Below are positions 33,958-44,975 of a stretch of DNA of 53,357 nt, in pieces (the first letter of the stretch is position 1; every line of letters starts with the position of its first letter). The DNA comes from Cladosporium halotolerans (lineage: Eukaryota). Location of the stretch: contig NW_027191500.1 in the NCBI RefSeq assembly GCF_011745625.1, positions 62,001-115,357 of the forward strand, in the 5' to 3' direction. Under the pieces are notes generated by a model. The model made no database searches. It was not told the DNA's origin and was given only the letters and a program-made list of their open reading frames with translations. A program made the position numbers and the translations under genes.

Positions 33958-36900
33958 TCAAGTGTAGTAATGCCAATCGTTCTCGCCGCTATCGGGCGTT
34001 TCCTCCAACGTGACCTTTTTGCTGCTGGCGCTTTGGCCCGATGTGTTCTCGCCACGCTCGCCTATTTTGCTCTTCCCGGCAGGTGCATCGGCGGTGTCCA
34101 CGATCTCAATCCCTCCTGATCCCGTCTTCTCTCGCTTCGTTTTCCCGTCGTCGACGGGAGGTGTGGTCGCGGCAGGCGCCGCTGGGACCTGCTGCTCCAG
34201 AGGCGGCTGAGAAGCAATGGTGGAAGATTCGCCCTGTGGGTTTTCGAGCTGGCTCTCTGCAGACTTGATCTCCGCCTCTTCGAACTGCTTGTTCTGGCGC
34301 TCGTGGGGTCGCATGGGTAGCTCAGGCGCTCGTTTTCGTCTCGCGGGTAGAGGAGGCGGCGGCGCTTTCTTTGTGGGACTGGCGTCCTGGTCGACGGCCG
34401 CAGTAAAGTCAATGAGATCGTTGTCGTGAGTCCTGAGATCGCGTGTCTTTGCGGCCACGTCGTCATGTTCCTCGCCGAAGTTCTCCCTCCACGGACCGAA
34501 TTCGTCTTCCTCGACACTGTGAGCGCTGGTGCCATCGCTTGCACGCTTTGCAGCGCTGCTGGTACCCGATTTGATGCTTGCGTTTGTCTCATCTTTCGAC
34601 GTATCCGTCCGAGCTTGCTCCGCAGCTGGTGGGCGGGTAGGCAGCACGGGTTTCCTCTTCACGCTCCCACCCGCGAAAGCGCTCCCGCCCCAGAGACTAG
34701 TCTTCGGGCCGGGTAGAGGCTGGCCGATCGGTGGTAGCGGCTGTCCTCTTCCTACAGGCTCTTGCGGTCCAGGTTTGTGGGAGCTTGGTGGTCTGAAAAT
34801 TGGCTGTCCTTGCTTGCGGTTTGCGACAGCGTTAAGCGTCCATTGCCTGGCTGCAGATGTCGCGGCCGCGGTAGCGGCGAAGAGCGCCTTGCCGCGGGGT
34901 TGACTTGTCTGAGAAGACTGCGTGGATGAGGCAGTGTCCGTTCGTGGGAGAGACTCGTAGCTGGGTGTTCTCGGTAGAGGGAGAGCGGTGTCCGAGACGT
35001 TTGGGTGAAGGCTCCCACTGGACTTGCTCCCAGCGCTTCCTCTACGCTCGGCCTCAAGCTCGTTCGGCTCTATACTCAGCAGTGCTGGGTCATCGTCGTC
35101 GCCGCCCTCTGCGACCGCTGTCGAAGCGCTCATGCCTGGGCTGCGCGGCGCAGTGTTGTCGTCTTTCCGCGCAGAGCGATCTTTCACTTCCCGAACTGCA
35201 TCCACTGCATCGCGCTTCGCTGCAGGTTGCGGCGATCGCCCTATCCAGCGTTTCGCTGGCGGTGGGGACTCGAGCCCTCTTACTGCATCAATGTTGGAGC
35301 CATCAATGGCTACGCTTGGCGTGGAAGGGAGTGGGGTGGTAAATGAAGGAGATCGGAGGCCTTTCGAGATATTGGTTGCCTTCTCTGCTGCTGCTTGAGC
35401 GGATTGTGAGGGTAATGCTGTAGCGGAACGGTGCTTGAGACTCTGGATTTGTTCGCCAGATTGATCCACCGTGACAGGTGTTTGAGCGCCGGAGGTTGTC
35501 GCAGACCCACCGCCAGAATTTGGTAGATTCGGCATCGACATCGTCTTTTCGTTTCTCGCGCTCAGCATGTCTTTCTCAGATGGCTCCGCCTGCCCCGTGC
35601 CCTGTTCTTCCGTCGGTTCAGGGTCTGGTTGCCAAATTCCGCCTCTGTATGTCTGCTTGTGCGTATCAAAGAATGGCACGTCATCCCAATTCGGCTTGAC
35701 CAGCGTCTCTCCGAATACCTCGCGGATTCTGTTTTCGATCTGGCGCAAGATGAAGTTGTACGTAATCTGGCGTGAGCTTACGATGGGCTCTACCTTGATC
35801 TCCATGTCCGGCATGTTCTCGAAGCAGAACCAGAGTCTGTTGCTTGGAGGTGGTTTCACGCGTACGAGCATGCGGCCCTGTAATCGCTGGAGACTTCCTG
35901 CCAGGACAAGGTCGACGGTGCGGACCTTGAAGCGCTGACCCAGATCCAATTTAGCCACGGCAGCAATGACTACTTTGATACCACCGGTGTACTTGACGTC
36001 CATAGATAGTATCATGTCGCCAGAAATATGTATGTCCTTGAGCCGTAGGTTCGAGAGAATGGGTCCGGCATCACCCAAGTCAATGCTCTGAACGCTCACG
36101 TAAGAGATGAAGGCTGGTTTCGCAACTCTTGAGATTTTCTTCTCAATTTTCTCGCGGACTAGATCTTCAAGAAACGGCGTGCGGTGTAAGGCAAGGAAAA
36201 TACGGTTTACGAGGGCGTTGAGAGCTCGGGTCTCTGGTGTCAAAGAATTCGAATGGATGCTCGACTGCAGCTTGATCGAGCTCGCAGAGTCCAAAGGTTG
36301 AGGCACAGGAGATTCCGGCTGTGCTGCGACAAGAGCATGGTAGAAGTCCTCCTTCTCGGAGCAGTTGGAGCTGAAGAGGTAGAATGGCTTCGGCTGCGAG
36401 TGCGTTCCTTGGGTCACGTCGCCACTTGCTGAAGAGGCATGCGGCTTGAGTACGATCGCCGTGCGCTTGATGAAGAGATCCGGCTCCAGCATATTCTCAT
36501 CGTCGCCATCGCCGTCTGTCAGCGAAACGGAATGGTGAGCCATACTTATGACATGCCGGACCTCCAGCTCAGCTGGCGAATCATATAACATGAGATGGCC
36601 GTGTCGGACTACGATATGGAACATGCTACCCACTGGGGCGCTCGGTTTACCTCGAGCTTGTGTGCCTGTCACAGGTTCGTCGGTGTCCGCCAGCGGATTC
36701 TTGTTCAGGGCCGTCCGGCTTCGGTCGAACACCGAGCGATACATGCTCTGGTACACTGACATCGACTCTTGACCGGGCGCTTCCGCTTGTCCCTCGCCAT
36801 TGCCTTGTGACGCGGCATTTGCCCTAGCATTCAAGGTGCTCAAAGCCGACTGGAAGTTGTAGGATCGCAGAACTGCAAACGTGGCATTCGCGGCCCCATC

Positions 36901-37104
36901 AGAAGAGAAATCGGCCTTGTGCGCGAGCTTGTCCTTTTCGGTATCCACTCCATCTTCAGCTGCCCTCTCTTTAACACTCGTTCCACCTTCATTCTGGGCA
37001 TGCGGTAGTGTAAACCAGGCGGTTATGGCAATCGTGATGAGCAGGAGCGGGAGGAAGGTGAGTCCGCCGAGGAGGTACGCGGATACGAGGGCTTTGAGGC
37101 TCAT
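33958..37104 (-). CDS. NVJ2: PH-domain + SMP-domain lipid-transfer protein (Nvj2/TEX2 family)
   Basis: N-terminal TM (AYLLGGLTFLPLL), PH domain (VVRHGHLMLYD...EKEDFYHAL), SMP domain (ALNALVNRIFL...KPPPSNRLWFCF...ETLVKPNWDDVPF), long disordered tail. Confidence 0.88.
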   Translation of the reverse strand: MSLKALVSAYLLGGLTFLPLLLITIAITAWFTLPHAQNEGGTSVKERAAEDGVDTEKDKLAHKADFSSDGAANATFAVLRSYNFQSALSTLNARANAASQGNGEGQAEAPGQESMSVYQSMYRSVFDRSRTALNKNPLADTDEPVTGTQARGKPSAPVGSMFHIVVRHGHLMLYDSPAELEVRHVISMAHHSVSLTDGDGDDENMLEPDLFIKRTAIVLKPHASSASGDVTQGTHSQPKPFYLFSSNCSEKEDFYHALVAAQPESPVPQPLDSASSIKLQSSIHSNSLTPETRALNALVNRIFLALHRTPFLEDLVREKIEKKISRVAKPAFISYVSVQSIDLGDAGPILSNLRLKDIHISGDMILSMDVKYTGGIKVVIAAVAKLDLGQRFKVRTVDLVLAGSLQRLQGRMLVRVKPPPSNRLWFCFENMPDMEIKVEPIVSSRQITYNFILRQIENRIREVFGETLVKPNWDDVPFFDTHKQTYRGGIWQPDPEPTEEQGTGQAEPSEKDMLSARNEKTMSMPNLPNSGGGSATTSGAQTPVTVDQSGEQIQSLKHRSATALPSQSAQAAAEKATNISKGLRSPSFTTPLPSTPSVAIDGSNIDAVRGLESPPPAKRWIGRSPQPAAKRDAVDAVREVKDRSARKDDNTAPRSPGMSASTAVAEGGDDDDPALLSIEPNELEAERRGSAGSKSSGSLHPNVSDTALPLPRTPSYESLPRTDTASSTQSSQTSQPRGKALFAATAAATSAARQWTLNAVANRKQGQPIFRPPSSHKPGPQEPVGRGQPLPPIGQPLPGPKTSLWGGSAFAGGSVKRKPVLPTRPPAAEQARTDTSKDETNASIKSGTSSAAKRASDGTSAHSVEEDEFGPWRENFGEEHDDVAAKTRDLRTHDNDLIDFTAAVDQDASPTKKAPPPPLPARRKRAPELPMRPHERQNKQFEEAEIKSAESQLENPQGESSTIASQPPLEQQVPAAPAATTPPVDDGKTKREKTGSGGIEIVDTADAPAGKSKIGERGENTSGQSASSKKVTLEETPDSGENDWHYYT

Positions 37105-38222
37105 TGTCCCGCATGTCGCTTGGCCACGCGCATGACACTCCGAAGAACAATGGTGTCAAGGCCCTTTAAGAGAAAAAGATGATTGGTGTCCTAATGCGTT
37201 TCGAGTTAAGCACCCAAGACCAGATCAGCCGAAGTCAACAACTGCACGTCATTGCTTGGCGCAGATCCGGAGATGGTGGAGACTCTGCCCATCCATTTTA
37301 TGTACATCTCGCAGCAGTAGCAGAAACACAGCTGGCCATGCATTCACCCGGGTACTGTTTCGCCATAAGAGGGTGAGCATAAAGCGTATCTCTAAATATA
37401 TCTGAGGATGCTCACAGCTGAAAGGGCTCCGCGTCTTCTCTCCTCTCCGCTCAACAATGTCAGCCAGACGTGTCGAACGGTCATTCAAGGGCAGAATGGA
37501 TTGGAACGTACATGGAGGGTGTTCGCCAGCCTCGTCCCAACGCATGTAGCCCTTATGGAGCTGTTGGTCTGCCTGTCAAATGCTGTTGCTTAGATTCACA
37601 GCGTGATGCCAATGTGAGCTCTATCACTGCGATGCTACGGATACGCAAGCGAACAGTACAGTCGGGAACCGCATTCTTTGATGGCTCGCAATTGTGACCT
37701 ATACACGGCTCGAATCCTTTACGTGCCTTTGTCTGACCTGCGTCCTGGCATTATCCAGTCCTACGACCAGGCTCCACAGCGAAAAGCGGCCCCTTCATCA
37801 TTATGATTATTGCACCCAAGGGCAAGTCACCATTAGACACATCTACAACACCCCAGCCGATAACACACTTCCAGCATTCTAGCTGCTTCGTCATGGCTGG
37901 GATTGGCTTCCCCCTGTAGATGACGAGACATGGTAAAGCTTCCAGCGCACGTCTTGCCAGGCGAGAGAGCCATGTTTCGTAACACCTAGCAGACAGACGA
38001 CAGGCGAATTTTAGAACCACCAGCCGAATAGAAAAGAAGGGAAAGGATTTCCCTTTACGTATGGAATCTGGCCCCACGACTCTGTGCTTGCCGCATTCTC
38101 CGCATCCTCCAGAGCTTTGACTTTGCCTGCGCAGATTTTGTGGGCGCCCCATCGAAGTCAAGACAAGCAAGTCTACATGGTTCAAAGAACGATGGTGCTA
38201 GTCAGGTCGTCGATAAATTCAG

Positions 38223-39423
38223 AATACGCCCACCATCTCGTTTCCCTGCGCTCGGCCGAATGCTTGGTCTGCGGAGATCAGATCTGCTTGCGCTTTGACA
38301 CGTCAGTGGCAGGCTTTCCTTCGTACAAGTCTTGAAGAATCCGCGATCAAGGCCTTCCTTCAATTGCCACTCAATTCTACGGACATGTCTTCCTACGCGA
38401 CCCTAGTATGGGACGACCGTCATACATCTTCATTTTATGTACGAAGCGGTCGGCAAAAACTCGTAAAGCCACCAGTAGTAGATCTTGGAAGTTTTCAAGC
38501 AGCTTGCGACAACAGCCAGATGAGCGCTCCATCACACCCTTTGCATTTGAGAGCTCCGGCTTCACATCTCTCAGCATGTCGGGACAAGACTGCGGCTCTA
38601 AGACTAGGGGTTCTTCGCGCCAGGAAGGTCCGCGAGAGGATCTGCTCTATCTTATCTAGAAGTTCGCAATGGTTGGTGACGCATTCTGCGAGCATGTTGC
38701 GGTGAGTCACATGGAGCTGTCCTCAACTGCATTGCTATCAGATGGCACGTAGTCGCTCATTCTGCCAGTGTTTTCAGAGTGGCTCGGCGTCCGCCAAAAT
38801 TCGCGTGAGATTCTCGCGCGAAGAAAAGGCCCGCGTAGATGGGAGCTGGCACGATGGAGATCATTTTCTTGGCGATGATCCACTCTTTGAAACAAAGGCC
38901 ACGGTCATGATCATCCCTGTCGGGGAAGTGCGGAGATGAGGAGGAGTCGTGGCGCTGACTTGTATTTGCGGGATGGCCAGTAGACGATATATCCACATTC
39001 AACAGGACTTCGATCATAGAGTCGGCAGGAAATTGGCACCTATTTAGGCTCACGAATAGGAGAACAAGGTTTCAGATCTGAATTCTGTGGTACGCGGTGG
39101 ACCCAGAGGATTCCAGGGTGACATAGCGCTAGCGCTATACAAAGCTTGTCTCAACGTCCTCTCTCACGTGCGCACCTCGCTTGTTCAACGAAGTAGACAA
39201 AGCATCGCAAGATGGCGAAACAAAGAAAATCTCGCCATTTCGAATTGCCTGGAGAGTATGTGGCCTGTCAGAAATGTGGTTGGCGGTCGGCTGCTTGCGT
39301 TCTGGAATGAGACAAGCATTTCAGGACAAAGCCGCATTCCGCGAGCTGAGTGTCATACGGCAACCAATGATCGCCGAAAGCAGGGCGCATGGCAGCAATG
39401 TCGCTGTGCCGTGCGTTCTCTGA
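38223..39423 (+). other. Candidate additional MAT-associated multi-exon ORF or gene relic
   Basis: Open frame 38217-38701 followed by a phase-compatible intron 38702-38752 (GTGAGT...TAG) into the 38742-38939 frame; a further open frame at 39133-39423. No complete start-to-stop model could be built. Confidence 0.3.
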
Positions 39424-39432
39424 ACGCTTCAG

Positions 39433-40451
39433 CTAGTCCATTGCTTCGTCGATGACCGGGTCCTTCTTCCCTGTGGCGGCGTCTTGGACTTCACCATCTC
39501 CGCTCGGATTCTCGTTTGACCCTCCCGTTTGTGCTTCTTCCCCAGAGCCAGCCTGCTCAAGAATCTCCTCGCGAAGCCCTTCCAAAATCCTGGTGCGCGC
39601 TGGTTGCGTCAAGGAGGCCAGATAGCCTTTGGCGAGGCCTTCTTCTTGCTTCTTGCTCAACTTCAGCGTCGTGCTACGCACGCGATTGATCGCATCGTTT
39701 TGGGCATTTCTTTCTCTGACTATAAAATGTCAGCATTTTCCCTTTGACCTATTACCAGCCAGACTGAAGCTTACACCATTCGTACAGTGTTTCCAAGTCA
39801 ACTCGAAGAAACTCCTGGAGCATCTCGAACTCCTCGTCGTTCGGCGGTCCGCGCTTCCTAAACCAATCCTGCAACCAACATTCGTGGTCCTTTTCTGGAA
39901 GCAATCTGTGCGTCGTGGATGGTCCAGAGTTGTACACCGTATCAGTCTCGAAGGTCGACTCATCGGTCAATCTATCACGGTTATTTAGCAACTCAGTGGT
40001 ATGACCGGGTCGTTGGAACTCACGCGTGGACTCTCTCTCGTAACGCTTGAAGCATGGTGAGCTTCTCTTCCACCGGAAAGAATCCAGGATCTTCAGGCGT
40101 ATTGCTATTGATCGCGCTGAATTGGAAATTCACCAACCCCTCTTGGGCCTCGTTCAAAAGCTTGGCTTCAGCAGCATAAAGCTCGTTCAAGTTCACAAGG
40201 TCTTTCACCTGCAATCGAGCATTTGTAGACACGTCGATACGACGTGTTTGGTCCGCGAAGTGTACATTTTCGATAGCTGGCGTAGGGTCTGGCGTTGTGG
40301 GTTCACCGAGATCGACGAGCCAGTCGTCCAAGTCAGAAAGGATATCATCAAGAAGCTCGCCGCTTTTCTTTCTGGCTTCTTGCTCCTCAGGGCCCGACAG
40401 CTCAAGTAGGACCTCCCAGGTCTGGCTGTGAATGTTCGCATTTCGAGACAT
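39433..40451 (-). CDS. MAT-associated gene encoding a 303-aa protein with a homeodomain-like segment (3 exons)
   Basis: Exons 40451-40024, 39971-39775 and 39719-39433 total 912 nt. Introns GTGAGT..CTAAA..TAG and GTAAGC..CTGAC..TAG. The spliced sequence includes WLQDWFRKRGPPNDEEFEMLQEFLRVDLETLYEWFRERNA. Confidence 0.8.
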
Positions 40452-40823
40452 CTTTGAGAAGGCTGAGAAAGTCGAAGTTGCGAGGACTTTGTTGCTGGGT
40501 CGATTCCTCTCTCCCACTTTCGAGTCGCAAAGGTCAGTCAACTCTCTTATTCAGTCAGTCACATGCATTCACTTGTCGGCGAAGCTTGGGCCGCGAGCGC
40601 GGGGCAAAGCGCTGCCTCTTTGGACGCTTTCACAGGCCCCAGCCACCTCAATTGCGCGCCGCACAGACGGTGGGTTGCGATGCCAAGGCTTCCGTATCCC
40701 ACGACATCCACGAAGCTCTTCGCACCTTCCTCGTGAGCGACAATCTGCACTCGCACTGCCGACATTTTCTTTTCCCCTGTTTCACACACTCCAACACAAA
40801 TCCAGCACCTTATCTGACCGAAG

Positions 40824-42355
40824 ATGTCAGCCTCGGCTGCGGCGTTTCCTGGCAGCGCGCCGCCGTTGCGCGACAAGAGCATTAACACTCCCCTCGATTT
40901 CAAGCTCGTCAAGGAGCTGGACGACGGCAACTGCGTCGTCAGCGTCTCCTTCGTAGCCGCAAGCAAGGCTTGCGGAAACAACCTTGAGCACCTCAAGTCT
41001 GCTATGGCGTGAGTGTGTCTCTTCAACGAAATCAAGCTCCTTGCTAACTGTCGCAGTGAGCACTTCAGCCAGCGCCTACAGACTCCTGTTCATCAAGTGG
41101 AGTTGAGCATCAACGCTTTTGAGAACAACATCATGGCTACTCCGGCCAAGGAGTGCGTCCTCGAAACTGCCGGCAACTCCGGCACGCTTCCAGCCAGCGA
41201 TGTCATCTGCGATGAAGATGTGAATGAGAGTGCCTCGAAGAAGGCGCCGAAGAAGGTTCCCCGTCCTCCGAACGCCTTCATCATCTACAGAAAGGAGTGG
41301 CACCCAATCATGGTCGCAAAGAACCCCGGAGCTCATAACAACACGATCTGTGAGTCTGCGCTCCCCTCTAATGTCTTCCTGAATTTGACTGACTTCGTGT
41401 AGCGATGATCATTGGCAACCAGTGGAGAAACGAAAGCCAAGAGGTGAAGGACAAGTACCAGCAGAAGGCCGCTGAGGCCAAGTACAATCACTCAATCGCA
41501 AACCCGGGCTATCAATACCAGCCTCGCAAGCCTTCCGAGAAGAAGAAGCGCATGACGAAGAACAAGCTGGCCAAACTCGCGGCAAATTCTTCCAACGCCC
41601 CGGAGGCTGATAACGGCGAGTTCAGTGATGTCCTGGACCTCCCGGACCCTCTGCTCACTTATGATTCCACAAAGAATCAAGTCTCTTTCTTTGCCGGGCA
41701 CGGAACCGCTGATCAGCTTACTGAGGAGCTAAACGGCTTCAACAACTACATGTGGCCTGACCAACAGCCGGCGAACAACCCGACCCCGGCGACCAACCCG
41801 ACCATGGCGACCAACCCGACCATGGCGACCAACGTGACCCCGGCTACCAACCTGAACCCGGCGTTCCTGACCACTCAGGCTACTGGCCAGCTCCCAGTCA
41901 TTCCGGGATTTAACACTACGGCCGCTCAGCCTGCCGGGCAGTTGCCCCTCAACCCAGCTTCTGCGCTCCCGTTCGTTCAGCCTGCTCCTCCGCAGCCTGC
42001 TCTTTCGCTGCCCATTCTTCCGGCTTCTATGTTCCCAGCTGCCCAGTCTACCGAGGTAGTCGCTGACCAATTTGGCGTCGACAATGTTCCGTACTACCCG
42101 CTCGGCTCCACTGCTTCGAACATGGCTGCTCACAACTCGTACAACTTCTTTGAACTGGATTTCATTGAGGAGCTCCTGGCGTACGAGAATAACGGAAAGG
42201 TTGGCAACCCGAAAGGTCACTTCGGTGAAGCCCAAAGCCTTGGTGCGACGCCGCAAAAGCTTCCTCCCCCCAGCGAAGGGTTCCGCCAGACTTCTCTCCA
42301 TGGTGGGCTTTCCGAGTTTGGCATGAATGCCTTCTTCGACTTCGACAACTATTAG
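40824..42355 (+). CDS. MAT1-2-1: Mating-type HMG-box protein MAT1-2-1 (3 exons, 476 aa)
   Basis: KKVPRPPNAFIIYRKEWHP...NPGAHNNTIS|MIIGNQWRNE...KYQQKA...H...NPGYQYQPRKPSEKKKR. Intron 41350-41402 splits the conserved Ser codon of the HMG box; first intron 41009-41056; adjacent to APN2. Confidence 0.96.
41777..41866 (+). repeat. 18-bp in-frame minisatellite (5 units) inside MAT1-2-1
   Basis: aacccgaccccggcgacc / aacccgaccatggcgacc x2 / aacgtgaccccggctacc / aacctgaacccggcgttc, encoding NPTPAT-NPTMAT-NPTMAT-NVTPAT-NLNPAF. Confidence 0.9.
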
Positions 42356-42998
42356 GTCTTTACCTCACCAACATTGAACACGAGTGTCTACGCTGATCAT
42401 AAAGACGCTAGCCAATGCCCATCGCTCAATGTGCGCAGAAGGACTCCGGGAAGTGACATGCACGAAGCACAAAATTGCAGTGCTCTTAAATAGGACTTTT
42501 CAGTACGTAGCTGGTATGAAATTGAAGTCTCCCCTGAGCCGTGATTGAAACCATGACACCCGACTTCGGTCCCTATGCCGTCCTCAAAGATAGTTTTTCT
42601 TGAAAGCTACCTATGTAACGTGGGTGTGCACCCATCCAAAAAGTCGGAAGACCCTGACCCACTGCATTTGGGCCTAATAGATCTAAGCCTTGAATCAACC
42701 GAGGATCTATGTAATCTAGTCTGCGAAATGACAACTGTTCAGCATCCCCAACACAAAGTTTCCGAGCTCCATCGTCTTCTGGAGTCGCAAAAACCCCGCT
42801 GCGCCACGTTCTAAGCCCGTGCGCACTGCGCACGAACATAGGCGGTCCAGTCAGCACGCAAGGCGGAGTTCACATGCTCGAGAACAATAGGACATGAAAC
42901 AGGGGTCTATTAGTCACGCCCTACCTATTGTCCCAGCCTCCCAGCTATTCACGCCCGGACCTCCTCCAATCACATGGCGCGAAACATCAAAACGTCCT

Positions 42999-44975
42999 TC
43001 ACCCATCCTCCTTCCTGCCGTTCTGCCAGTCACTGCACCATATGAAAGTCCCACACCTCCACTCTGTGCCCTTCTCTTTCTGCCCGCTGGGCCCGAGCGG
43101 CCGCGCGCACATCCAGAAGCTCCGCCCTTGGTTGCTGCCCTTCTTCTTCGTCTGCATTGACTTGCAGGGCTCGGCGTGGTCTTCGCACAGGGGCGCGACG
43201 GGGCGGGAGAAGAGCGCAGACCAGGATTGCGAGGTCGCAGAGCGCGCTTCGAGGTTGTCGAAGGATTGTGTGGGCGAGGGCGGATCGGTGCGTACTGTGC
43301 GGGCAGAGGTTGGGGTTGCTGATGTTTGACTCGGGATGGGCGTACTTGGCTCATTAATGTTTGTGGTTCCGGAGGGAGTGGTGGTTGTGCTATCCTGGAG
43401 CAGCGTCGATGTGTTCGAGCGTGACCTTTCGCCTGCCCCGGATGTCTCTTGATGATCCGCAGAGCTGTGTCCGTTTTCTTGCGCAGTAGCGGTAGCGGTT
43501 TTGCTCGCGCTAGTAGTTCTGGGCTGGAAGAAACCTCGAAGGCTCTGTTGCCCTTTCCCCGTCGAACCGTTCGATGTTGCGTTCCCCTCGGACTTCTGCC
43601 GCTTTGCAGCCACTGGCTTGGAGGATGTTGAAGCTTTTCGCTTCGTGTCCGGGCTAGCCGCAGCTGTGTCGATCGTCGAGGGCGGAGCTTTGGTAGCTAC
43701 TGCAGGCTCTTCCGTCTTTTGCGCTTCGTTTGGTGTTCCTACGGGACTGGCATTGCTAGCTGCTGGCTTTGGCTTCGGCGCCGCAAACATCGACTTTATG
43801 CTTCTGCGCTTGTCGAATTCTTGCAGACGCTTTCCAGAAAACGCAGGGATGTCTTGTACTTTCCATTCACGCTTGCGATCCCCATCCACGAACGTTCCGG
43901 GTGGGCTCATGATGTCGAGGAGTTTCACATCGCCGTTCTCAGTACTCACAAGATCATGGAAGTCGACGAAGACAGGGCAATGATCGCTACCGAGTAAGCC
44001 TTCTTGGATGTTTGCATCTTTTATCCAGGACCGCATAGACTCAGCTACAAGGACAAAGTCGATGCGAGAGCCAAAGTTGCCCGGCCGGGCATTTATCTTC
44101 TGCTCCCAGTGTGTGTACATGCCCGCCCTGTCCGGGTGGAAGCCCCTTGTAGTGTCCCAAAGAACCCCTCGTTCCCTGCCTTCGTCTCTTTCTCCAACAA
44201 CCTCGCCACCGACGAGCAGCTGGTTAAAGATCCTGCGGTTGGGAGTAGAGATATAGTCTTCGTGGCTGATGCCATGTTTCCTCATGTCGTCCGCCGATGA
44301 GGCTGTATCCAGCTCATGTCGAGAGACGTTCAGGTCGCCAACAAGCACGACTCGCTTGCCCCTCCGGGCCAAGTTGCGGATTCGGCAGTCAAGAGCACAG
44401 ACGAAACCATATCGAAAGTCGTCGCGCAGGCCGTTGCTGTTCGCTGGGGAGTAGACACCCAACAGGACGAACGCTGGGAACTCAAGGATGAGACAGCGGC
44501 CTTCGGCATCAAGAAGGGCAGCGTCGACGCCGAGCTCGGCGATCTGGAATTCGCTAGGATATCCACCAATGCACTGGTCGTCTGGCAGCTCGCGATAAGG
44601 AGTGCCGGAAGGCGAAGGCAACACCCCGAGCAATCCTTCTTCCGCCCGAATGGGAGCGCAGGTTGCGTTCCTTGTGTAGATCCCAACACCGGAGTAGCCT
44701 TTCTTGTGCTTCGGCAAGCTAAAGTAGCAGTCCCATCCATCCAGTATCACCATATCATCTCGCAAGTCTTTGCGCTGGATCTTCAACTCTTGCATGACGA
44801 TGATGTCGCTCTCCAGAATATCGAACATAGCCGGAAAGCTGCGAGCAGCGTTCCATGGTGGATAGGAGAAAGGGTTTCGAATACCGTTGACATTCCTGGA
44901 AGTAGATCAATCAGCATATTATCCTTCAGACAGCCCGGTAAGGCGCGTTCCATCTTACCATGTAGTGAGCCTCAT
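42999..44975 (-). CDS. APN2: AP endonuclease 2 / DNA lyase (2 exons)
   Basis: Intron 44958-44896 gives MRLTTWNVNGIRNPF. Also QELK, GYSGV, GDLNV, SRIDF and GSDHCPV; PIP box QQSLRGFF; C-terminal GRF zinc finger (C..H.EPC...GRSFWMC...C..F.W). Confidence 0.96.

Follow-up and report, generated by a model that had tools for sequence, protein, structure and literature searches.

What kind of gene stands head to head with the mating-type (MAT) gene MAT1-2-1 in the mould Cladosporium halotolerans, and does it have a part in mating? The question was addressed in a stretch of 53,357 nucleotides of contig NW_027191500.1 (positions 62,001 to 115,357), called the window below, where the setting is that of a MAT1-2 locus because the gene has an HMG-box gene as its neighbour, followed by APN2. 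A first-pass annotation, made from the letters alone, had read this accessory gene (39433..40451, minus strand) as encoding an atypical homeodomain protein, co-regulated with MAT1-2-1 and perhaps pairing with a counterpart from the MAT1-1 idiomorph. The gene is near certain to be real, and our best guess is that its product is a non-DNA-binding adaptor whose expression would depend on mating type. New here are a gene at the edge of the MAT locus with a possible degenerate homeodomain, and a locus border that very probably falls inside its coding region in relatives; accessory MAT genes as such are known.

Read directly on the minus strand, the gene runs from an ATG at 40451 to a stop at 39435..39433 through three exons and two canonical introns, and computed joining of the exons gives 912 nucleotides encoding 303 amino acids with a single, terminal stop, as had been annotated. 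Exon 1 (40451..40024; 428 nucleotides, 142 codons plus 2 nucleotides) encodes a helical N-terminal region and is followed by intron 1 (40023..39972; 52 nucleotides, phase 2, GTGAGT...CTAAAT...TAG). Exon 2 (39971..39775; 197 nucleotides) carries an SGP-x-x-TH motif, helices 1 and 2 and the start of helix 3, and ends in TGG T at intron 2 (39774..39720; 55 nucleotides, phase 1, GTAAGC...CTGAC...TAG), which splits the Phe codon after a conserved Trp, so that the junction TGG T/TC reads Trp-Phe. Exon 3 (39719..39433; 287 nucleotides including the stop) contributes the rest of helix 3, a long helix and an acidic tail, and ends in a conserved P-x-I-D-x-x-M-D. The protein is acidic, with 31 K+R, 61 D+E and an isoelectric point (pI) of 4.5. 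Between its ATG and that of MAT1-2-1 at 40824 on the opposite strand lies a spacer of 372 bp (40452..40823), in agreement with the head-to-head arrangement first reported.

Relatives of the protein are few. A HMMER search of exon 1 against 1.84 billion representative proteins matched four, one at 98% identity and three at 28-35%, and a family profile search matched 15, of which 14 are unnamed single-exon open reading frame (ORF) calls and the sole named one, P0015, is the NCBI hypothetical protein Q7P37_006406 of Cladosporium fusiforme (252 amino acids; order Cladosporiales). No named MAT protein was among the matches of these two large searches. Word-index searches of longer proteins with exon 1, and of proteins restricted to 316-2000 residues with an exon 1 alignment, gave no match, which is weak evidence. 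The deposited model of P0015 appears to be mis-spliced: a stretch of exon 1 present in the ORF-level relatives P0014 and P0004 is missing from it, and its second junction reads Cys where the relatives show Phe and then four more residues.

A scan of metagenome contigs yielded eight related loci (L001-L008). Exon 1 has a relative in all eight (31-37% identity to the window) and exon 2 in six (48-50%), the other two contigs stopping 64-67 nucleotides past exon 1; exon 3 gave no tblastn match in any of the eight at E 0.01 or better and was located through gene models instead. In each of the six loci long enough to include them, both introns are kept, with position and phase unchanged. Intron 2 is unambiguous in these six (donor GTAAGT or GTGAGT, 51-53 nucleotides, acceptor CAG before TC), and the Trp-Phe split codon is therefore conserved. 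For intron 1 a candidate of 52-54 nucleotides (GTNNGT donor, CAG acceptor) was chosen from several that keep the frame. Four relatives are complete to the stop, with 309, 309, 314 and, on a 5′-truncated contig, 280 amino acids, and are collinear with the window protein through the C-terminal P-x-I-D-x-x-M-D. As far as can be judged from these sequences, the family is a small one, so far seen only in Cladosporium and close relatives.

In the six pairs of four relatives the ratio of nonsynonymous to synonymous substitution rates (dN/dS) was 0.26-0.58 in exon 1, 0.03-0.09 in exon 2 and 0.21-0.49 in exon 3, comparisons of the window with its relatives being near saturation at synonymous sites. Strain differences were taken from four public runs against the window, and the counts are among the differences listed, 12 more occurring in the 3.1-kb stretch. 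Eleven are exonic in the accessory gene, seven synonymous and four nonsynonymous, with none in exon 2; the 107 nucleotides of predicted introns hold six substitutions and one 1-nucleotide deletion, three of the substitutions lying in intron 1 and the other three, with the deletion, in intron 2. By this comparison the gene and its exon structure are well supported with no need of RNA. The substitution rates point clearly to purifying selection, which is most intense in an acidic module of 60 residues whose coding sequence spans intron 2.

This module was aligned as the 60 residues that end 12 past the conserved Trp, which was set at homeodomain position 48. In the window it comprises residues 161-220 (39685..39919, minus strand, intron 2 inside), with Trp208 at position 48. 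It aligns without gaps in eight family members, all of which have, in homeodomain numbering, Leu16, Pro26, Leu34, Ile/Leu38, Val40, Ile/Leu45 and Trp48. The hydrophobic core of homeodomains is made up of positions 16, 20, 34, 40, 45, 48 and 49, and the module was counted as having that pattern. The part of the protein first called homeodomain-like is its most constrained part and is gap-free on core positions 16, 26, 34, 38, 40, 45, 48 and 49. In the ESM Atlas features the nearest named cluster was homeodomain-only protein, at 0.77 for P0015 105-225 (rank 4 overall); the same cluster scored 0.78 for window exon 2 and an ascomycete PF00046 cluster 0.75. The same lead thus came from two members that are only 50% identical in exon 2.

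Asn51, Arg53 and a basic N-terminal arm make the DNA contacts in homeodomains. The family has E, A or Q at position 51 and N, H or K at position 53 (E51 and N53 in the window), the segment before helix 1 is acidic, and the eight modules have 3-8 K+R against 9-14 D+E with a pI of 4.1-5.5; Asn51, Arg53, a basic arm and a net positive charge are all missing. The earlier remark that Glu replaces Asn51 and that basic residues are few was borne out. Canonical DNA binding by the module is unlikely, because positions 51 and 53 are replaced, the arm is acidic and the pI is low.

The fold was modelled with AlphaFold on the spliced homologue P0015, the exon 2 and exon 3 translations of the window and the loci serving as alignment rows. 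The model has helices at 131-144, 149-159 and 163-183, followed by a long helix at 188-221. When it was compared with the PDB by Foldseek, homeodomains made up 28 of the 44 rows listed, typically at 2.1-2.4 Å over 46-55 residues with a target-normalised template modelling (TM) score of 0.66-0.71. The rows include engrailed, NANOG, DUX4, TGIF1, MATa1/alpha2 and HOP; the second homeodomain of DUX4 superposed at 2.2 Å over 49 residues (target-normalised TM 0.71), MATa1/alpha2 at 2.1 Å over 46 and HOP at 3.0 Å over 51. In a VIA-align search of 48,161 chains, independent of Foldseek, tandem engrailed reached Z 5.3 and engrailed 1du0_A Z 5.1 at 2.3 Å over 53 of 53 residues, model 128-180 lying on chain 7-59, and 12 or 13 of the best 50 rows were homeodomain proteins. 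The endpoints of the engrailed superposition put P0015 Trp169 on position 48, which is the register of the sequence motif. As a control, a model of exon 1 (helices 10-18, 21-47, 82-114 and 127-141) of equally low confidence, with a mean predicted local distance difference test (pLDDT) score of 53, gave no homeodomain among 40 Foldseek rows and a mixed list with no coherent match.

A number of results weigh against a homeodomain. Phe49 is present in seven of the eight members, P0015 having Cys, and position 20 is F in the window and A in the other seven. Pfam searches at E up to 10 gave no match of any kind, PF00046 included, with the three exon translations of the window, and none either with P0015 and the three exon pieces of L002 and L004; helix 3 of the window is split by intron 2 in such queries, so that only P0015 held the whole module. 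Family profiles against all PDB sequences found only DnaJ (E 0.068) and SdhE (E 1.4), with no homeodomain at E up to 10. Membership of the homeodomain family is not established, because no profile match was obtained, and the ESM matches are leads only, because all of them fall below 0.9, the level at which shuffled sequences stop scoring. The P0015 model itself is poor, with a mean pLDDT of 45 and 51-60 over the module, and the modelled protein is only 50% identical to the window in exon 2 and about four residues short at its annotated junction. Every Foldseek E-value was 0.7 or worse, none reaching 0.001 or better. In VIA-align, unrelated helical proteins score as high as the homeodomains (Z 5.0-5.3); an unrelated NuA4 chain heads the list at Z 5.5, and the whole list spans no more than one Z unit, a range that the tool gives as usual for helical models. 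The structural check advised at first pass returned a three-helix module with homeodomains in the majority of the Foldseek rows listed, but at low confidence and without significance. The chances that the module has a homeodomain-type fold are evenly poised, and homology to homeodomains is rated at less than even.

The gene is not confined to one mating type in the relatives. In L001, L005 and L006, pieces of MAT1-2-1 with an HMG box by Pfam lie upstream on the opposite strand, as in the window, and L001 also has APN2 and APC5 in the same order. In L007 an alpha-box gene (PF04769, E 2.7e-23) lies upstream on the same strand; L004 is 96.4% identical to L007 over 941 nucleotides, and the upstream part of L008 aligns with both. 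The accessory gene adjoins MAT1-2-1 head to head in the first three loci and MAT1-1-1 in tandem in the other three (L007, L004 and, by its upstream sequence, L008). APN2 and the accessory gene share their strand with MAT1-1-1 but not with MAT1-2-1, so the two MAT genes are inverted relative to their flanks. The parts of the relatives that belong to the MAT1-1 idiomorph are L007 1733-3000 (+), L004 1-445 and L008 1-314.

Upstream of the ATG the MAT1-2 contigs align with one another, as do the MAT1-1 contigs, but the two groups do not, and all of them align from about codon 9. The transition was followed in L001 (MAT1-2) and L007 (MAT1-1), which come from one metagenome and both end before exon 2. 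Their flanks on the APN2 side are 96% identical. Upstream of the ATG identity is about 36-50% per 100-column window, in the first ~250 nucleotides of coding sequence 74-83% and in the remainder 96-100%. Over codons 9-90 the two share 60 of 82 residues, with a synonymous divergence (dS) of 0.69 and dN/dS of 0.21; over codons 91-140 they share 50 of 50 residues, with dS 0.03. Because L001 and L007 shift from diverged to identical at about codon 90, the border of the mating-type region very probably lies inside the coding sequence, within exon 1, in these relatives. Each mating type of the L001/L007 species is, on these alignments, equipped with its own promoter and its own, still constrained, first ~90 residues. 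That the border was mapped in relatives and not in the window species tells against carrying it over directly; in C. halotolerans the first ~90 codons of exon 1 (to about 40182) would by analogy be the mating-type-specific part.

A second candidate pair, L006 and L008, is diverged throughout (dS 0.24-0.27) and probably represents two species. The MAT1-1-linked copies of exon 2, in L004 and L008, differ little from the other copies, and since exon 2 of L004 against other relatives has a dN/dS of 0.03-0.09 we infer that the homeodomain-like module is common to both mating types. The proposed distinct homeodomain counterpart in the other idiomorph does not exist in the relatives, because the same gene is found there, identical from codon 91; an allele was indeed present beside MAT1-1-1, differing in its promoter and first ~90 codons. 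Six further runs, X9-X14, contain only 0.12-0.32 of the words sampled from 39300-42400; they may come from conspecific MAT1-1 strains that have just the body of the accessory gene in common with the window here.

An alternative is that this is an ordinary flanking gene on its way into the non-recombining part of the mating-type locus, with a generic helical bundle for a module, no part in mating, and 5′ divergence as a by-product of linkage. In the 5′ part the alleles of L001 and L007 are 80.8% identical, compared with 78-82% between species, and the alleles group by species rather than by mating type. This grouping speaks for such a gene, as do the missing profile match to any family and structural matches that are weak and tied with unrelated helical proteins. 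Idiomorph-specific versions of a flanking gene also occur in other Dothideomycetes, as PIM of Phyllosticta; in 10.1101/2020.04.14.040725, PIM and COX13 of Coccidioides are flanking genes with two mating-type-specific versions. The accessory gene resembles these in lying at the edge of the locus with two versions, and differs in that the switch from diverged to identical falls inside the coding region, at about codon 90, with a promoter that is wholly idiomorph-specific. Against an ordinary flanking gene stand homeodomains in 28 of 44 Foldseek rows listed compared with none of 40 for the control model, the agreement of structural register and sequence motif, the ESM lead shared by two members only 50% identical in exon 2, and purifying selection on the diverged 5′ part in both haplotypes (dN/dS 0.21). 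We regard such a gene as unlikely, without being far-fetched. If the homeodomain reading fails, what is left is one more fast-evolving MAT-flanking gene.

Transcription was approached through the same four public runs, none of the runs listed being registered as RNA. Three keep the MAT1-2-1 introns and behave as DNA; the fourth, X5, whose label "RNA?" is a guess, was treated as complementary DNA because it is without the MAT1-2-1 introns 41009-41056 and 41350-41402 (GT..AG), exactly. In X5 the stretch 39300..40532 is transcribed from the plus strand, antisense to the accessory gene. A contig of 1265 nucleotides (depth 16) covers it from left of 39300 (end near 39209) to 39728 and then 39788-40532, skipping 39729-39787 (59 nucleotides, GT..AG on the plus strand; joint 39728>39788) and running unspliced through the predicted minus-strand intron 1. 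A leader intron at 40533..40830 on the plus strand (GTCAGT...CTGAC-N11-AG; joint 40530>40829) joins this antisense stretch to MAT1-2-1; the joint is carried by one contig of depth 17.9, with 28 nucleotides on its shorter side, and the unspliced path has a depth of 6.9. In the X5 sample, then, a plus-strand RNA of at least 1.2 kb passes antisense over the accessory gene and continues by splicing into MAT1-2-1. Weighing against its generality, the antisense transcript comes from contigs of one run of unknown growth condition. No contig among those listed for X5 carries the minus-strand junctions 40024/39971 and 39775/39719, such contigs showing presence and not absence.

The MAT1-2-1 ATG (40824-40826) falls within the leader intron, between branch point and acceptor, and is spliced out with it. 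Met is absent from the last 83 codons of the frame by which the leader enters MAT1-2-1, and nine ATGs occur in the leader from 39300 on. MAT1-2-1 has its next in-frame Met codons at 61 and 88, both before the HMG box at 130. A matching GT donor and the same branch-ATG-AG arrangement recur in L001 and L006. Coding on the plus strand was considered and rejected, as the frame joining MAT1-2-1 lacks Met throughout the 83 codons that precede the junction and the remaining plus-strand frames are short. Within the spacer, several blocks of 8-15 nucleotides are conserved with L001 6440-7012 (-) and L006 580-1125 (-), even though the proteins encoded on either side share only 31-55% identity; the blocks could be promoter elements or leader-intron signals.

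The reading preferred here combines a gene at the MAT edge, a DNA-blind homeodomain-like adaptor, mating-type-dependent expression and interference by an antisense leader, and as a composite we would put it at an even chance. The module would fold as a homeodomain-like three-helix unit that has lost its DNA-reading residues, and would act as a protein-binding unit like the homeodomain-only protein HOP. By giving each mating type its own promoter and N-terminus, the idiomorph would make the amount of the protein, or its partners, depend on mating type. In MAT1-2 strains the long spliced MAT1-2-1 leader, running antisense through the accessory gene, could in addition interfere with its expression. 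HOP (HOPX) acts through protein contacts and not through the usual DNA binding. It is the nearest named ESM cluster for two family members, and mouse HOP is present in the Foldseek rows; the accessory protein would resemble it in combining a homeodomain fold with absence of the usual DNA binding. Unlike HOP, an animal protein of ~70 residues with no detectable sequence relationship to it, the module is part of a larger protein of 303 residues, which has a helical N-terminal region as well as an acidic tail. A role of the gene in mating we hold only tentatively, at below even.

A bolder possibility is that the module descends, in degenerate form, from a true mating-type homeodomain kept at the MAT locus of Cladosporiales, the anciently diverged but still constrained N-termini (dS 0.69, dN/dS 0.21) being self/non-self determinants that pair after fusion as in bE/bW. 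In bE/bW the N-terminal part varies between mating types and the homeodomain is constant, and the accessory protein is alike in having a varying N-terminal part and a homeodomain-like part that is probably constant. With a1/alpha2, Pi and bE/bW it further shares linkage to a mating-type locus, and the MATa1/alpha2 structure is in the Foldseek rows. Those proteins, however, bind DNA, keep Asn51 and Arg53 and form two pairing classes, whereas the acidic module described here has lost the contact residues and the relatives have a single gene class in place of two distinct homeodomain classes. A complex prediction with the N-terminal regions of the MAT1-2 and MAT1-1 alleles gave no verdict either way (score 0.00, partner fold uncertain). 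We consider this descent very unlikely; if true, it would mean a homeodomain-type compatibility factor in the Pezizomycotina, whose MAT loci are commonly taken to depend on alpha-box and HMG genes alone.

The first-pass proposal proper, a DNA-binding atypical homeodomain factor co-regulated with MAT1-2-1 from a common promoter and pairing with a different MAT1-1 homeodomain protein, has in its favour the head-to-head layout across 372 bp, the conserved spacer blocks and the homeodomain-like core pattern. It is contradicted at positions 51 (E/A/Q) and 53 (N/H/K), by the acidic arm and by the pI of 4.1-5.5. In the relatives the MAT1-1 haplotype has the same gene, with exon 1 of L001 and L007 identical from codon 91 and exon 2 of L004 and L008 little different, and no second protein class was seen in their MAT1-1 loci. 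The spliced transcript that was seen across the gene is that of the other strand, joined into MAT1-2-1, and co-regulation from a common bidirectional promoter found no support. We consider this proposal highly improbable. Last, that no protein is made, the open frames being incidental and the long plus-strand MAT1-2-1 leader the functional product, would fit the plus-strand origin of the only spliced form seen over the stretch in X5 but is scarcely credible given that species differing at the majority of synonymous sites have kept the frame, the stop and the places of the introns, and given the dN/dS of 0.03-0.09 in exon 2, strain differences that are (among those listed) mostly synonymous and enriched in predicted introns, and the presence of the gene beside MAT1-1-1, where the leader cannot be the same.

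The non-DNA-binding adaptor favoured here can be set beside the accessory genes of other ascomycete MAT loci, which are often reported and almost never understood. MATORF1/2, a term not found in the literature searched, are accessory MAT ORFs of Pseudocercospora. Other accessory MAT genes are described as MAT1-1-10 and MAT1-2-12 of Teratosphaeria (PMC7513301; naming note 10.1101/2020.12.18.423428), ORF1-1-2 and ORF1-2-2 of Cladosporium (Fulvia) fulvum (PMC9453070) and MAT1-1-8 and MAT1-2-5 of the Botryosphaeriales (10.1101/2020.04.14.040725). Compared by description only, the gene in the window is like these Dothideomycete genes in being small, in lying beside MAT1-2-1 or MAT1-1-1 and in evolving fast outside one domain, and unlike them in being one gene for both mating types, with the border inside it, and not two unrelated idiomorph-specific genes. 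The literature searched, subscription papers and supplements lying outside it, gave no description of a true Cladosporium MAT locus and no homeodomain-like MAT-linked gene in Dothideomycetes.

The leader, too, has a known parallel. In Cochliobolus heterostrophus the MAT leaders are long and spliced and start in flanking DNA. Unlike these, the leader in the window runs antisense over the gene next door, and the annotated start codon is lost with the last of its introns. Multiple MAT transcripts are described for C. heterostrophus in PMC3574095, so that both Dothideomycetes have more than one MAT transcript form.

The present gene offers three handles: a constrained, possibly DNA-blind homeodomain module, a border that cuts the coding region, and an antisense MAT1-2-1 leader that removes a start codon. 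Species of Cladosporium are ubiquitous moulds, and we know of no documented sexual cycle for most of them. A MAT-linked gene under selection in both mating types bears on cryptic sex in the genus.

Beyond the accessory gene, MAT1-2-1 occupies 40824..42355 on the plus strand and encodes 476 amino acids after removal of its introns 41009-41056 and 41350-41402, with the HMG box from residue 130; two of its exon pieces match PF00505 in Pfam (E 4.5e-07 and 4.6e-06). APN2 (42999-44906; Exo_endo_phos and a GRF finger) is the next gene after it. On the other side, between the accessory gene and a gene of 1065 amino acids at 33958-37155, about 2.2 kb (37200-39400) are without a long open frame, and this gap is not conserved with the matching 2-kb gap of L002. 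Inside MAT1-2-1, at 41768-41863, an 18-nucleotide tandem repeat of 5.3 copies encodes a Pro/Thr/Asn-rich repeat. At this repeat all four runs split into several short contigs with raised summed depth, which suggests that its copy number varies among strains.

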